Assembly: GCA_964016885.1 (NCBI GenBank)
Contig: OZ024740.1
Coordinates: 86,614,001-86,678,000, forward strand
Origin: Eledone cirrhosa
Taxonomy: Eukaryota
Direction: 5' to 3'
DNA: 64,000 nucleotides
The notes below the pieces were generated by a model that was not told the DNA's origin, searched no databases, and saw only the letters and a list, made by a program, of their open reading frames with translations. A program made the translations under genes and the position numbers. Shown here piece by piece: positions 21,157 to 29,204 of this stretch (within the stretch, counting starts at the first letter, position 1; every line of letters starts with the position of its first letter).

Positions 21157-21803
21157 AAATGGAATCTTAGTAAAATCGAACCTTTGGCTGTGGCCAAACA
21201 AAGTCGACCTACAATTAGGAATGAGTAGCAAAGCACTCAATAAGGGTAGGTCCTCAGAGTAATAACGTTACGTTTAGAAAGCTTGGCAAATTGAAAATTG
21301 CAGCAGGCAAAACCCAGCCACACAATACCAAAACAACGAAAAAACTAATCAGATTAGACAACAGACCTTGACAAATCGAACGATATTCTGCAGGTTTCTA
21401 TGATTTCGAAATCATCAATCCAACTTACGCAATACGTAGCTTGTGGTATTCTATGATCGAACAGGTATTTCGTTCTAGGCCTCAAACCGGTATGAACTCA
21501 GGACGACTGCTACAATAGACAGCATTCAGTCTTTCGTTGTCACGTGTTATTTCCAACAAGGGAAGTAACCCCCGGTTTTTGGCGGCCAAACTCAAAGTGT
21601 GAACAAAGGAAAATAATTCCGCTCAACATTCCGAATAAAAGCTCTCGACTTGACGTTATTAAACAAACATAAATAATTAACCAATCAACAGAATTGTCTA
21701 ATTAAATTAATTAATTAATTATTAGGTCTAGGAGATAATAATACAAGTAGAAGCTTAGTAAAATCGAAGCTTTGGCTGCGGCCAAGTAAAAGCGACCTGC
21801 AAT

Positions 21804-21997: not shown

Positions 21998-22302
21998 ATT
22001 AGGAATATACTTCACTGCTTTACGATCGTTTCTAGGTGATAATAGTACATCGTACGCATATTTCGTTATCGATTTATGTAAGGTTAGTTACAAAATATCA
22101 AATAAGGAATATATTTACCTACGTGTATATCGTCAGCCGTTGTAAAAAAGCTTTTGACAACGGCTGACGATATACACGTAGGTAAATATATTCCTTATTT
22201 GATATTTTGTAACTAACCTTACATAGAACGATAACAAAATATGCGTACGATGTATTATTATCACCTAGAAACGATCGTAAAGCAGTGAAGTATATTCCTA
22301 AT
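21998..22302. repeat. Fold-back palindrome with ~150 bp arms centred on AAG|CTT (22150/22151)
   Basis: Arms reverse-complementary with about 5-6 differences. Confidence 0.92.
22150..22283 (+). ncRNA. Type I HHR, U3-A8 core, ~107 nt helix II
   Basis: GCTT-TTGACAA(22154-60)-insert-GAAACGATCGTA^AAGC; stem III palindrome ACGATCGT. Confidence 0.6.
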
Positions 22303-23145
22303 TTTTTCTCTTTTTTCTGGGTTAGAAAATGTTTAAAACAAAATATTTTACTTTGTGGGAAGTGTTAAGGTATTAGTTAATTTATTTGTTAATTAACAGT
22401 GCCATTTATTTATTTATTTATATATTTAATAATTGTCTATTACCAGTTTCAGCATTTTATGCATTATCAAAGGGGGGAATTTGTATTGGTGTAAAATGGT
22501 GATGTTGAACATGTTAAGGAAATGGTGAAGAAAGAATAATGTTATTTACAAACAAGGTTTTTGAAGTGAAAAGATTAAAGAAAAAAAAGAGGGTAATGTG
22601 GAACATGATAAGATAATGGGAAAGAAAAAAAAAAATTATTTACAAGCATAGTTCTTGAAGATAAGCAGTTCAAAATGTGTTATTATGGCAAGAGTGCTTA
22701 TTTGATCCATGATGGAGGCAAATTGTAGTCTGGGGTTTGATATGATTTCCCTTTTTAGAGAGTTAATATTCAGGGGAGGTAATTCAGGGTGGTCATGTAG
22801 GGGAGAGAGAAATGAGAGGGGGTAATTCATTTATATAAGAAAAAGGATTAAGTAGGGTGTCAGGGAGGTAACTCTTTAGAGAACATAGGAATTAGTTTAG
22901 TCCGAAGTTTAGTCCATTAAGTAGAGGTTGGAATTTGTTAATGAAGTATGTTTCTTAGACAATTATTAAATATATAAATAAATAAATAAATGTCATTGTT
23001 AATTAATAAACAAATTAACTAATACCTTAACACTTCACACAAAGTAAAATATTTTGTTTTAAACATTTTCTAACACAGAAAAAAGAGAAAAAATAAAAGG
23101 GAAAAATAATATTTTTCTTCCTAATAATCGTCTTTTTCTCCCTAT

Positions 23146-23193
<48 letters not shown>

Positions 23194-23256
23194 CAACTCG
23201 TGTGCTCCTTCTCCACATTGTATTATTATTATTTACTCCCACACGAGATACAGAAA

Positions 23257-24843
23257 ATGCCAACTAAAACAAAAACACTCTCATTAACATCAATCAAGAG
23301 ATACTCCAAGAACTACAAGAACTACAAAATATAAACTCTAATTTGTTAATACTCACCAACAAACTTAATTCTACAAGTAAAGAAACAATCCCCAAATACA
23401 CATCCTATGAAATCAACGACAATATCAACAACTTATGTGAAACAATAAAAACACACCTGAATAACAACACAAACCCTATTCAAGCGAACGAAAAAAACAC
23501 ATGACACTAATACACTCACAACTTACCAAATAAAAAACAAATTAATACCACAATGGTACACATCTCTTAAAAACAGGAAATTCTTCTTTTGGAAGATGAT
23601 ACAAAATAATAACAAAGCGGAGATCTATGAAAAATGGATTAACTTATCCCCATTAATTAGCCCCCGCAAACTACAAATTAAATCCATCCCAAACGAACCC
23701 GAGACACAAAGACGCCTCAGGGAAAGAATGGAACTTGATAACATAAAAACCGAAATTGAACTCCTTAAATTGAGAGCCCAAGCAAATGAAGACAGGATCA
23801 AATCAATCGACGATGAGATTAGTCTAGCAGTTATCAATAAAACCAAAGACACCACCCTAGAAAATATTTCAAAATTATGGTTAGAGGACTGTAATAAGGA
23901 AGAATTAAAATCCCTTCAACGTTTGGAAATAAACGAATCCTGGTTCTCTAACTATGAAACACTTTTCCAAAAAGAACACACATCCAAGAACCCCTTCATT
24001 AAAACCATAATAACAAGAAAACCTAATCACCACCCAAACACCACACAACAACCAACAACAACAAAAAACAATACCTCCCCACATACCAAAAAAAGAAGGC
24101 ATCACCTCGCCCTACCTCCTACACCCTCCACACAACTATCACACGGACTCCCAAGCAACAAATATAGTAATAGAGAAACATCAGCTACAAGATAGACACT
24201 ACAACTTCTCTCCTACCAGGAGAAACCATAAAATCCCCACACTTACAACCCCCCTGACATCCCCACACAACAAACCCACAAACATCATTACTTTCAACAT
24301 AGAACCCAAAATACACAACTACCACACATGTCACACAGGGTCTCACAACCACACACCAACTATAAGGAGACCCTAATCTACCCTCCTCCACTAACCACAT
24401 CCTACTACAAAACCAGCAGGGGGCAATACAACCACACGAGACACCCTAACCACTGCAACCATCATAACTACACACCATACAACAACAGCAGGACTCAATA
24501 TAACCACACAAGACAACCCTACTACAACTACCACCAAGTCTACACACCCTACAACAACAGCAGGGCTCAACACAACCATACGATACAACCCAACTTCAAC
24601 AACCACCACAACTACACACCCTATAACCACGTCAATCAAATCTACACACCCTACAACAACAACAGCAGGGCTCAATACAACCACACGAGACAACCTAACT
24701 TCAACAACCACCATAAGTACACACCCTCTAACAACAACAGCAGAGGCCAATACAACCATAAGAGACATCCAAACTTCAACAACCACCACAACTTCCGTAG
24801 TCATTTTTTAGACATAGCACACAGACACAGGGTAACAAGATAA
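23257..24843 (+). pseudogene. Upstream ORF of element C: helical region plus ~60 nt repeats (YTPYNNSRAQYNHTRQPNFNNHH), disrupted
   Basis: ORFs 23596-24195 and 24328-24843 lie between the 5' pLTR remnant and the RT region. Confidence 0.55.
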
Positions 24844-24856
24844 CACACAGGAGACA

Positions 24857-27144
24857 GAAAATGTAATAAAAATCGTTAACTTAACCTCTAAAGAATTAAC
24901 AACAGATCAAATTAACATACGAGAGTATGTTAATTTGGTCTGAAATTTACACCAACTCCCCAACGACCAAACTACCCCGAAGTGAGGGAAGATATTGCAG
25001 AATTCTGTAGAAAACTAAGACTCAGCGAGCAACTATACGACAAATACAATGAGGATGACTCAATAGCCAGAAATAGAAGCAACAACACCCCACCAAAAGG
25101 CAAGAACAAATTCCTCGATCAATTCTGCGAACACATTACTAATTACCCATACCACCACCTACACAGACATAAACAAAAACCAAACCTAAGCAAAAAAGAA
25201 TGAAATGGTCTTAACAGTCTAAAGAACGACAAAATCCTAACAATCAAAGAGACGGATAAAGGGAGTGCAGTAATCCTCATGAGGACAGATTACTACACGA
25301 CTCTAGTATTCTCAACTCTAGAAAACCAAACATATTACGAAAAGGCCCAACACTACACACAACAGAAAATAATGAGAAACCTAAAATCCCTAACAACCCT
25401 TTACAAAGAAGGCCTTACCCACAAGGAATACAACTACATCACCAATTTCAAAAGCAGAACCAGCCTCTTCTACGGTATCCCAAAGACACACAAAAGCGAA
25501 GTAATAGGCAGAGCCTGCAAGCAAGCCACAGACATTTACATCAATATACCCCTCCTGATGACCTTAAATTAAGACCCATAATAGCAGGCACCAAATGTGA
25601 AACCCACCGCCTAAGCAACTTCCTAGATATTCTGCTTAAACCTTTCCTAAAACACATAAAAAGCTTCATAAGGGACGACCTTGACATGCTCAACCACCTC
25701 CCAACAACACTCAATAATGAACATACCCTACTAGTAACCTTTGATGTCATCAATTTATATTCCAATATCCCACACAATCTAGGTATAGAGGCAATACAAT
25801 TCTGGCTTGAAAATTTCCCTAGTGAACTCCCACAGCGCATCCCTAAAGAATTTGTGTTGGAGGGACTCAAATTCATCTTGGAAAACAACTTCTTCGAATT
25901 CAATGCCAAATACGACAGGCAGAAATCTGGGACTGCCATGGGCACGAAAGTAGCCCCCCTCATACGCCAACCTTGTCATGGGATATTTGGAAACCACTCT
26001 CTACCGCAAAGTTCTAGACAAATACAGTAACCACTTCTACCTACACATAGAAAAGAACTGGAAGAGATATCTGGGCGACTGCCTCATCCTCTGGCATGAA
26101 AGTATAGATAGACTGATTGGGTTTAAAACCCTTCTGATTGGACTCAACACAAACTTACAATTTACAATGGATTACAGCCATGACCAACTCCCTTTCCTCG
26201 ACATCCTCATCAAGAAAACAAACAGCAAAATAGAAACAGACATATACTACAAACCCACAGACTCCAAACAATACCTTCCATTCAACTCGTGCCACCCTCG
26301 CCATACCAAAATGGCAATTCCTTATAACCTAGCCAGAAGGATCTGCACAATAGTTTCATATAAATACACATGCTACACACGACTAGAAGAATTAAAGAAC
26401 ACACTTATAAGCAGAAACAACCCACCATCCATAATCAACAATGGATTCAAACGTACCCTAAAACTCAACATCCATGAACTCAGACACCCCAAACCCAGGA
26501 ATGAACCGCAACAGAAAACTCTACCATACATCTCCACACACAACCCCTCAACAATGAGGCATTTGACACCATCCTCCAGAACATTCCTTTACTAAAAAGA
26601 GACCCAAGAATGAACAAAATCCTTCAAACACACAACATCATAAATAGCAAAAGACAACCTAAATCCAGAAAAAACATCCTCACACAAGCCAAAATCCAAC
26701 CAACCCTCACAATGAACCATACAGTAAAAAAATGCGGAAGGCCCAATTGTGGCATATGCATAAATCTAATAGAAGGTTCAACATTCCATTTTAAACAAGG
26801 ACAACATTTCACAGTTAAACACAACTTTACATGTGCATCTGAAAACCTAATCTATGTTTTGACCTGCTCAGGTTGTCAAGAGCACTACATAGGACAGACA
26901 GAAAAACAGCCTCCGACAACGTATGACCGTCCATAGATCACGAATCAAAATACAGGAATACAGAAAGATTGCTTTTAGTGAACATATCGCCAATTGTGCA
27001 TCTAACCAACATCCAAACTTTAAAATTTTCCCCATTTACAAATTCATAGACAACGCTTCTTTCATCCATCGTACCAATAAGGAAACATATTTCATTAACA
27101 AATTCCAACCTCTACTTAATGGACTGAACTTAGGACTAAACTAA
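24857..27144 (+). pseudogene. RT + Cys motif + GIY-YIG of element C, multiple frameshifts and stops
   Basis: Consecutive ORF fragments 24982-27144 carry motifs in the expected order. Confidence 0.9.
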
Positions 27145-27565
27145 AACTGGAACGAACAATGAACCAAAACCAAATTCCTATGTTCTCTAAAGAGTTACCT
27201 CCCTGACACCCTACCTAATCCTTTTTCTTATATAAATGAATTACTCCCTCTCATTTCTCTCTCTCCTACCTGACCACTCTGAATTACCTCTCCCTGCATA
27301 TTAACTCTCTAAAAAGGGAAATCATATCAAACCCCAGACTATCATTTGCCTCCATCATGGATCAACTAAGCACTCTTGCCATAATAACACATTTTGAACT
27401 GATTATCTTCAAGAACTATGCCTGTAAATAATATTATTTTTTCTTTCCCATTACCCTCTTTTTTTTCTTTTATCTTTTCACTTCAAAAACCTTGTTTGTA
27501 AATAACATTATTCTTTCTTCACCATTTCCTTAACATGTTCAACATCAACATTTTACACCAATACA

Positions 27566-27616
27566 AATTCCCCCCTTTGATAATGCATAAAATGCTGAAA
27601 CCGGTAATAGACAATT
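27566..27616 (+). ncRNA. Minimal HHR-like motif (U3-A8) in the pLTR of C; stem I weak. Minus copy at ~22431-22480
   Basis: TTGATAA-T-GCAT-AAA-ATGC-T-GAAACCGGTA^ATAGAC. Confidence 0.5.
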
Positions 27617-28018
27617 ATTAAATATATAAATAAATAAATAAATGCCATTGTTAACTAATAAATAAATTAACTAATACCTTAACACTTCACACGAAGTAAA
27701 ATATTTTGTTTTAAACATTTTCTAACCCAGAAAAAAGAGAAAAAAATAAAAGGGAAAAAAAAAGATTTTTCTTCCTAATAATCGTCTTTTTCTCCCTATT
27801 TTAATATATATTCCAACTCGTGTGCTCCTTCTCCACATTTGTCGCTTTTGCTTAGCCGCAGCCAAAGCTTCGATTTTACTAAGCTTCCACTTGTATTATT
27901 ATCTCCTAGACCTAATAATTAATTAATTCATTCAATTAGACATTTCTATTGATTGGTTAATTATTTATGTTTGTTTAATAACGTCTAGCCAAGAGCTTTT
28001 ATTCGGAATGTTGAGCGG

Positions 28019-28077
<59 letters not shown>

Positions 28078-28235
28078 TACATATATAATTAATATATATA
28101 AATAGTTTCCTCTACTCCTGATGAAGGACTAACGTTCGATACGTTTCTCTTTCAAACGTGAAACTAATACGACTATTGCTTTTTTGTATCTCTGTTTTTG
28201 TCCCTTTTTGTGTGTGTGTGTGGGGGGGGGGGGGT

Positions 28236-28291
<56 letters not shown>

Positions 28292-28388
28292 TTGTTGAAT
28301 AAAGATTACGCTGCTATAATTTCATCTTTCAGTTCTTCAGTATGCATTATATTTTTCAAAAAGATTGCAAATATATAAAATTAATTTA

Positions 28389-28950
28389 GGGTAGGAATGT
28401 GATTGGGAGTAAAGAAGTGAAAAGATGAGGAGGAGTTAAACGATGTGTAAGGGTAGGAATGTGATTGGGAGTAAAGAAGTGAAAAGATGAGGAGGAGTTA
28501 AACGATGTGTAAGGGTAGGAATGTGATTGGGAGTAAAGAAGTGAAAAGATGAGGAGGAGTTAAACGATGTGTAAGGGTAGGAATGTGATTGGGAGTAAAG
28601 AAGTGAAAAGATGAGGAGGAGTTAAACGATGTGTAAGGGTAGGAATGTGATTGGGAGTAAAGAAGTGAAAAGATGAGGAGGAGTTAAACGATGTGTAAGG
28701 GTAGGAATGTGATTGGGAGTAAAGAAGTGAAAAGATGAGGAGGAGTTAAACGATGTGTAAGGGTAGGAATGTGATTGGGAGTAAAGAAGTGAAAAGATGA
28801 GGAGGAGTTAAACGATGTGTAAGGGTAGGAATGTGATTGGGAGTAAAGAAGTGAAAAGATGAGGAGGAGTTAAACGATGTGTAAGGGTAGGAATGTGATT
28901 GGGAGTAAAGAAGTGAAAAGATGAGGAGGAGGAGTTAAAGGATGTGTAAG
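28389..28950. repeat. 62 bp tandem repeat, ~9 near-identical copies
   Basis: Unit GGGTAGGAATGTGATTGGGAGTAAAGAAGTGAAAAGATGAGGAGGAGTTAAACGATGTGTAA. Confidence 0.95.
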
Positions 28951-29204
28951 GAACTGAGATTGGCAATTGAAAAGGTGTATCCTTTGTGTGAAGGTTTTTA
29001 AATCTCTTTGGAGAAATCGATAAAAACATCAGGAAAACATACATATATGTTTCCAAATTGAAAATGGATCGTATTTTTGTAGTTAAGCACTGCTAACCTA
29101 GTCTACAATCAATGGGAATTATTTAATTCAGACTAATAATTTACCGGTTGTGACATATATTTTAATTTAATGTATTTTCTGCAATGTTCATATAAAACAG
29201 CCAA

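Follow-up and report, generated by a model that had tools for sequence, protein, structure and literature searches.

A pile-up of 5′ ends next to a hammerhead-like motif in a Penelope-like element family of Eledone cirrhosa

Results

Layout of the locus

The window, by which we mean the whole stretch of DNA that was analysed, comprises 64,000 nt of Eledone cirrhosa (assembly GCA_964016885.1, contig OZ024740.1, positions 86,614,001-86,678,000 of the forward strand), and it harbours a Penelope-like composite, element C, whose features are collected in Table 1. The element unit extends from TTCCAACTCG... at 23191 to a (TA)n tract at 27803-27810, and a second copy of its last ~200 nt with (TA)n (22956-23190) sits before the unit. 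Comparing these two regions by BLAST gives a direct repeat in which 22956-23157 corresponds to 27608-27811 with 95% identity over 204 nt, the first aligned bases being 22956 and 27608. Direct reading of the window puts the beginning of TAGACAATT, and with it the start of the sense copy, at 22956, in agreement with the first-pass annotation, which had the sense body starting at about this position. Near the 3′ end, positions 27597-27616 read GAAACCGGTA/ATAGACAATT, where the slash marks the cut predicted from a hammerhead-like motif, between 27606 and 27607 (GGUA/A).

What lies 5′ of 22956 is not a flank of host DNA but an inverted, 5′-truncated arm of the same element. By self-BLAST this arm (22302-22957) is the reverse complement of 27078-27745, in two blocks which pair 22302-22893 with 27745-27173 (93%) and 22892-22957 with 27144-27078 (94%). 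The sense and inverted arms share two nucleotides, TA, at 22956-22957, so that, within the predicted 3′ product, the sense end lies somewhere from +1 to +3; this is compatible with the annotation's placement of the junction 1 nt inside that product, and the sense copy of the window lacks A27607, the product's first base. Taken alone, a single end as close as a few bases to a given site has a chance of roughly 1 in 1000 in a unit of 4.65 kb, and the site was picked post hoc.

Table 1. Features of element C in the window
Feature	Position	Strand	Description
Inverted 5′-truncated arm	22302-22957	-	Reads through the hammerhead-like motif, head to head with the sense copy (self-BLAST)
5′ copy of the ~200-nt terminal segment	22956-23149	+	Starts TAGACAATT = 27608 = +1 of the predicted 3′ product (BLAST)
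(TA)n tract, inner of the two family 3′-end positions	23150-23190	.	Most family copies end here
Unit start, TTCCAACTCG...CCACATTGTATTATTATTAT	23191-23233	+	Same ~42 nt as the optional 3′ 'tail' of other copies
Element body, frameshifted ORF	23234-27575	+	RT pieces 25260-26595; GIY-YIG endonuclease pieces 26505-27144 (translations)
Hammerhead-like motif	27576-27606	+	Sequence reading; box common to 72 distinct family copies
3′ copy of the ~200-nt terminal segment	27607-27810	+	Segment 27607-27802, short (TA)n 27803-27810; A27607 is the modal 5′ end of short family copies
First 30 nt of the 'tail'	27811-27840	+	3′ end of Penelope-like sequence in the window copy

Identity of the element

Element C is a Neptune-type, endonuclease-bearing Penelope-like element that inserts into (TA)n. 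This reading is drawn from four features of its layout: the partial tandem, the inverted truncated arm, the (TA)n ends and the two 3′ ends ~42 nt apart. Both the partial-tandem pseudo-LTR and the inverted 5′-truncated copy at the 5′ side are present in the window by self-BLAST, and in a set of 39 near-full-length relatives 3′ body sequence stands ahead of the unit in 16, with inverted arms in several and the unit start placed directly after a (TA)n tract in ~30. The family is large, the 19-mer TTCTTCCTAATAATCGTCT near the 3′ end having 1629 genomic matches. In the 90 copies sampled from among these matches (see below), the first (TA)n, right after ...CCCTRTTTTCA, is the end of 76, and another 13 (plus one too short to tell) continue for ~42 further nt (TTCCAACTCG...TTATTATTAT) to a second (TA)n and end there. 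Nearly all of the 90 carry (TA)n at the 3′ end, where the tract may be partly templated, and many have it in the 5′ flank too.

As for the coding region, the RT-like motifs FDVINLYSNIPH and TAMGTKVAP are visible in translations of the ORF pieces, and a CGRPNCGIC linker with a GIY-YIG-like LIYVLTCSGCQEHYIGQT follows downstream of the RT pieces. Pfam searches of the frameshifted ORF pieces returned no RVT_1 match even at E ≤ 10 and no GIY-YIG match; the protein Atlas clusters nearest to the RT piece (score 0.96) are eukaryotic, with DUF8422 in 74-80% and RVT_1 in 12-14% of their members.

Endonuclease-bearing Penelope-like elements of the Neptune/Nematis type, for which Arkhipova (2006) is reportedly the source, are the closest known system. 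To the extent covered by the available text of Craig et al. 2021 (PMC8557442), element C shares with them partial-tandem pseudo-LTRs, an inverted 5′-truncated copy beside the upstream repeat, an optional 30-40-bp tail, (TA)n targets and, as a hammerhead-like sequence, the motif near the 3′ end; its RT-like pieces followed by a GIY-YIG-like one recall their order of RT and C-terminal GIY-YIG endonuclease, and their CX2-5CxxC linker is comparable to the CGRPNCGIC found here. The architecture shows no differences from this type; what the present counts add is that 5′ ends are in excess where the ribozyme is predicted to cut.

Neighbouring repeats

Several other repeats lie in and around the composite. 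A 184-nt stretch flanks it on both sides in inverted orientation (27841-28024 on the + strand, 21613-21796 on the - strand); we considered 27841-28024 as the tail or end of the element and rejected it, given that it is an unrelated high-copy repeat and that Penelope-like sequence stops at 27840. This separate repeat has at least 2032 candidates in the genome, occurs in the fixed context ...aattgtag/GTCG...GGAATTAT/tttcctttgtt, and has a 64-nt internal inverted repeat ~450 nt away. Positions 21998-22302 hold a 305-nt near-perfect palindrome (96%), inserted in the inverted arm at the equivalent of 27745; the same sequence is found again behind the (TA)n of L088, an unrelated copy of the family, and it resembles a repeat of the foldback or MITE-like kind with (TA)n among its landing sites. 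Immediately beyond the composite's own trailing (TA)n, 28108-28165 reads CTGATGA...GTTTC...GTGAAAC, with hammerhead-like boxes in an unusual order and no Rfam match. Yet another unrelated sequence, AACGAAGGAAGTGTGGTAAGGAACC..., stands directly after the (TA)n in 5 of the 90 sampled loci (L087, L094, L103, L113, L162) and, on the opposite strand, in the 5′ flank of L016, which points to a further repeat family using (TA)n sites in common with the Penelope-like element. Finally, self-BLAST reveals a tandem array at 28388-28951, with a 62-nt unit in ~9 copies of 97-99% identity.

The hammerhead-like motif

The motif lies ~200 nt upstream of the position where family copies end and reads UUGAUAA-U-GCAU-AAA-AUGC-U-GAAA-CCGG-UA/A. 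It consists of the core UUGAUAA at 27577-27583 (U3...A8), an extra U at 27584, helix II (GCAU-AAA-AUGC, 27585-27595), another extra U at 27596, GAAA at 27597-27600, the palindrome ACCGGU at 27600-27605 and A17 at 27606. GAAA and the type I order are present and the canonical CUGANGA box is absent, its place being taken by UUGAUAA, or by UUGAAAA in the fourth subfamily, so that the box fits only the U3-A8 covariant form. Three traits of Penelope minimal hammerheads can be recognised, namely a base between positions 9 and 10.1 (U27584), a G10.1-C11.1 pair that opens helix II, and a palindromic 15.2-16.2 (within ACCGGU) whose minimal helix III would allow a dimer. The extra U27596 separates C11.1 from G12, and we found no description of such a base in the literature on minimal hammerheads. 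Helix II is invariant between subfamilies, varying only in its loop. Across four subfamilies with wholly different upstream sequence the box differs nowhere but in loop II and at N7 (U or A), which are the positions that a hammerhead leaves free, and the variation therefore fits a hammerhead.

Helix I is weak. It has 1 bp in subfamily A and 2 bp plus a G-U in B and C, so the annotation's remark that stem I looks weak holds for the three abundant subfamilies (1-2 bp), and the energy model leaves helix I out. The rare fourth subfamily, D (L110, L111, L188-L197), has box flanks that differ on both sides (...CACATAA/UUUGAAAAUGCAUAAAAUGCUGAAACCGGUA/AUUGUUAAUU) and that, unlike those of the abundant subfamilies, are complementary over 5 bp (AUAAU/AUUGU). 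When two copies are folded together, the palindromes pair and both helix II hairpins form (subfamilies A and B). In the monomer and the dimer alike, the energy model pairs the core UUUGAUAAU (27576-27584) with AUUAUUAAA (27613-27622, +7..+16), a predicted alternative pairing that would bury the core and might keep cleavage low.

Database models do not recognise the motif. Rfam gave no ribozyme of any kind at the site and no hammerhead at gathering score in the window, and a hammerhead search at E ≤ 10 gave none among the best 150 of the 264 matches listed for the whole window, in 27500-27680 or in three subfamily D loci. Two other ways of reading the site were rejected. An HDV-like or other ribozyme 3′ of the cut finds no counterpart in Rfam, and that segment is rich in A and T to a high degree. 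Splicing at the junction is contradicted by the lack of an AG ahead of 27607 and by the position of the GT in CCG/GTAAT, which would place the cut 3 nt off.

The nearest known relatives are the minimal type I hammerheads of Penelope elements. The available part of Cervera and de la Pena 2014 (PMC4209133) lists the 9/10.1 base, the G10.1-C11.1 pair and a palindromic 15.2-16.2 as typical of them, describes a U3-A8 core variant in Cercyon elements, and reports a 2-bp helix I for the D. virilis hammerhead. Within the scope of that text, the motif of element C shares the strand order, the extra 9/10.1 base, G10.1-C11.1 and the UA cut dinucleotide, as well as a one-pair helix III inside the palindrome ACCGGU, which implies action as a dimer. 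It differs in the extra U between C11.1 and G12, in a helix I of 1-2 bp (5 bp in the rare subfamily) and in having no Rfam match.

5′ ends in copies sampled regardless of their 5′ end

As a sample that is blind to the 5′ end we took 90 of the first 98 listed TTCTTCCTAATAATCGTCT places outside the window, leaving out the last 8, and mapped their 5′ ends against 18 long family members and by eye; mapping by BLAST against a single reference had been dropped, as it produced false ends at subfamily boundaries. Five of the 90 copies (L104, L106, L112, L119, L121) start within 2 nt of 27607. For background, the remaining 196 positions within ±100 together have 19 ends, or ~0.1 per nt, and the excess at the site has a binomial p of 2.7e-4. 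Breaks at the site thus make up ~5% of all sampled copies (5/90) and ~7% of those that reach it (5/69), and the other 64 (~93%) read through. The annotation had proposed a histogram of 5′ junctions across the family, and the peak that it looked for is there, both in this sample and in the 41 further breaks described below.

The site is not the only place where ends gather. Seven further ends fall at +5..+20, five of them in a TA-rich context where microhomology could act, with a neighbouring cluster at +9..+14 in TA-rich sequence. A second, broad cluster spans 27297-27358, where ~14 of the 90 copies (L087, L089, L099, L114, L115, L117, L126, L132, L133, L147, L148, L150, L151, L171) have their end within ~60 nt, most densely at AGTCCACCATTTGCC. 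It could be a dispersed pseudo-LTR transcription start or a pause zone, and it demonstrates that hot spots without a ribozyme exist.

Genome-wide breaks at the site

For a larger collection we searched the genome for the 24-mer 3′ of the site, which has 939 places, and kept those in which all four bases at -7..-4 differ from CCGG. This filter left 47 matches. Inspection of the 46 outside the window identified 5 as indel or duplication variants of read-through copies and 41 as true breaks, so that there are 42 real breaks when the window is included. An A stands at -1 in 38 of the 42, and the modal first base is therefore A27607, the predicted N1.1. Eleven of these 38 also have an A at -2, which is about what chance would give in AT-rich flanks, and an extra G just before the site, present in 3 or 4 of the 42, is no commoner than G in the flanks.

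Sorted by flank, the 41 breaks comprise 17 next to (TA)n, 11 next to other sequence, 7 head-to-head arrangements with an inverted arm and 6 internal sense joins. Four of the head-to-head loci have an inverted arm that likewise terminates at 27605-27608. The internal joins lead to the site from 23878, 26940, 27419, 27535, ~27584 and 27589, with 0-3 nt of microhomology. Apart from element sequence the flanks are unrelated to one another, and the breaks are hence independent events. Most of them are plain ~200-nt units ending in (TA)n, and none of the 46 inspected loci continues into the element body. The share of each of the two main subfamilies among the breaks matches how abundant it is (17:9 vs 40:17); the fourth contributes 0 breaks against 7 read-through copies, numbers that are too small to weigh.

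A control filter at -10..-7 gave 8 matches with ~4 real junctions, and the comparison of 41 with 5 yields p = 4e-4 even if the control had half the sensitivity. Another control, on a CCCCCC stretch, was unusable: more than 50 of its 59 matches have the same upstream ATAATTTG, which is the fourth subfamily, and at most ~8 of the 59 could be junctions.

Near-full-length copies

The near-full-length copies speak against one part of the annotation as worded, in which the 5′ end of a full-length element maps to the site. The 39 best matches to 23300-23700, of which 37 are independent, were taken with 1.5 kb of upstream sequence, and none of the 37 starts there. Sixteen of the 39 read through the site into the 3′ body, with ends from -21 to beyond -1100, another 6 start inside the ~200-nt segment, and the others begin no further upstream than the unit start. 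The proportions 0/37 and 5/90 do not differ significantly (Fisher p = 0.32); the peak itself is made of ~200-nt short copies, and for element C, which had been called full-length, a short terminal segment placed ahead of the unit is the better description.

Discussion

A 5′-end hot spot at the site is real. The junction at 22956 is best seen as one instance of 5′ ends piling up, across the family, just 3′ of a hammerhead-like motif, and we lean, by a modest degree of belief, towards the view that this pile-up is most likely the footprint of reverse transcription on RNA cut by the motif. The peak is modest and built of short copies, and its cause is probably cleavage by the putative ribozyme, whose part in making the RNA end is deduced from the position of the ends and from the motif. 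Plain truncations, fold-backs and chimaeras which all begin at one base are as expected of an RT that reaches a real RNA 5′ end. The earlier idea of an RT running off a ribozyme-cut RNA therefore stands in so far as the 5′-end peak, the fold-backs and the joins speak for it, and it is qualified in so far as DNA cannot separate cleavage from other origins of an RNA end. What tells against it is the atypical motif, with its extra U27596, its short helix I, its lack of an Rfam match and a predicted fold that buries the core, together with the small size of the effect, the near-full-length copies, the other clusters of ends and the findings on PAc that are discussed below.

The series of events that we envisage would run as follows. 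A minority of template RNAs would carry a discrete 5′ end at A27607, and this end would probably arise when a minimal type I hammerhead, with U3-A8 in its core, cleaves itself at low efficiency. The hammerhead would act as a dimer via its ACCGGU palindrome, perhaps helped by the protein of the element. Starting at (UA)n or at the tail position, the RT would copy ~200 nt, after which it would run off the end, fold back or switch to a different template. In the window, the short segment at 22956-23190 was likely made in this way and joined to the inverted arm on one side and to the unit on the other.

The same footprints could be had from other sources, and an important one is that the discrete RNA end at 27607 is real but stems from a transcription start in the pseudo-LTR or from a host nuclease, after which the RT would behave alike. 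Transcription by RNA polymerase II usually starts at a pyrimidine-purine step and a start at an A preceded by an A is unusual, so that A27607, which is preceded by A27606, is a poor fit to a transcription start. A main start at this base would furthermore predict full-length copies that begin there, and, as mentioned before, there are none among the 37. The G that precedes the site in a few breaks might come from the copying of a cap, but it is matched by the frequency of G in the flanks. Nevertheless, the DNA footprints call for an RNA end and not for a ribozyme, the motif is atypical and unmatched in Rfam, and promoters in pseudo-LTRs have been reported for Penelope-like elements (Frangieh et al. 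2024, PMC11167929; also in the portion of PMC6765202 that concerns them). What places this account lower is the unusual A-A start, the fact that full-length copies start elsewhere and a coincidence that is exact to the base, as the modal end in 38 of the 42 breaks is the very position that the motif predicts; we thus consider it unlikely, albeit one to be kept in mind.

Two further accounts seem to us improbable. One does without a discrete RNA end and takes the site as a hot spot of joining or stalling, caused by a pause at the ACCGGU duplex or at structure close by, by a match of ATA/TA with (TA)n or by recombination at the palindrome. It draws on the (TA)n flanks of 17 of the 41 breaks, whose ends are ambiguous by 1-2 nt, on the cluster at +9..+14 in TA-rich sequence, on the 0-3 nt of microhomology at the junctions and on the existence of the broad cluster at 27297-27358. 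On the other hand, (TA)n is missing from the flanks of 24 of the 41 breaks and of all five sampled copies that break at the site, and target microhomology cannot explain those 24. The peak at the site is 1-2 bases wide against ~60 nt for the other cluster, the six internal joins and the fold-backs with both arms at one base would be hard to get from target microhomology, and a duplex of 6 bp is a weak barrier to an RT. The other account, to which we give a similarly small place, regards the ~200-nt copies as a separate non-autonomous repeat with a fixed 5′ end, sharing its 3′ sequence in a SINE-LINE-like manner, with element C carrying or adjoining one. That most breaks are plain ~200-nt units ending in (TA)n, with 0 of 46 continuing into the body, would suit it, and the accessible text of Li et al. 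2026 (10.64898/2026.07.22.740005) argues that animal retrozymes derive from pseudo-LTRs. However, the bases diagnostic of the two autonomous subfamilies occur among the short copies at the ratio seen among the long ones, which means that the short copies were spun off repeatedly and do not form one lineage. They also lack the ribozyme core, no internal promoter boxes were seen in them by eye, and their 5′ end would still need something to set it, which leads back to the other explanations.

It is instructive to compare the family with PAc, the Poseidon element of Anolis carolinensis. In both, the hammerhead cut, which for element C is a predicted one, lies ~100-200 nt upstream of the RT start, the targets are AT-rich, and two adjacent 3′-end positions are parted by a 'tail', here resembling the two RT start sites of PAc (PMC11167929). 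The PAc ribozyme is weak and assisted by protein, to which the putative weak ribozyme of element C may be likened, but its core has a canonical C3-G8 and overlaps the start codon, whereas the motif here has U3-A8 and lies downstream of the ORF (PMC11167929). Moreover, in PAc the ribozyme is unnecessary for insertion in vitro and no RNA-seq reads start or end at the hammerhead site (Frangieh et al. 2024, PMC11167929), in contrast to the genomic copies that pile up at the site here. Searches of the full-text literature, to which the supplements of key papers may add, brought up no account of Penelope-like copies whose genomic 5′ ends gather at a hammerhead cut.

The HDV-like ribozymes with which R2, L1Tc and relatives begin at the 5′ end, on which Eickbush and Eickbush (2010) and Ruminski et al. 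(2011) are said to be the sources, offer another useful parallel. In these and related non-LTR retrotransposons, according to the portion of PMC6765202 that treats them, the self-cleaving RNA sets the template's 5′ end, and this can be read in the DNA copies. The two kinds of ribozyme differ in what becomes of them. Cutting at its own 5′ edge, an HDV-like ribozyme remains part of the element, and all full-length copies therefore begin at that point. A type I hammerhead is left on the upstream fragment, and copies of the downstream fragment are consequently without ribozyme and coding region and are dead ends.

This leads us to what the finding may mean for Penelope-like elements in general. 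Hammerhead motifs have been known in them since 2014, their function being described as "still unclear" in the available text of Craig et al. 2021 (PMC8557442). A base-exact excess of 5′ ends, counted over three junction types, would be the first sign that cleavage takes place in vivo. It would suggest, and here we find ourselves evenly poised between belief and doubt, that Penelope hammerheads cut in living cells and that the downstream fragment serves as a template for RT, each cut spinning off ribozyme-less dead ends of ~200 nt, fold-backs and chimaeras, with the genome keeping a record of this for ~7% of templates and with a U3-A8 core and extra U that standard searches miss. Should the end turn out to be a transcription start, the promoter of the family would have been located and the fold-back and chimaeric copies would still be explained. 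In either case, plotting 5′ ends against the predicted cut is a simple test that can be applied to any assembled genome with such elements. Overall, our results suggest an origin for short repeats derived from pseudo-LTRs, and they suggest that a non-canonical core which database models miss may still act.
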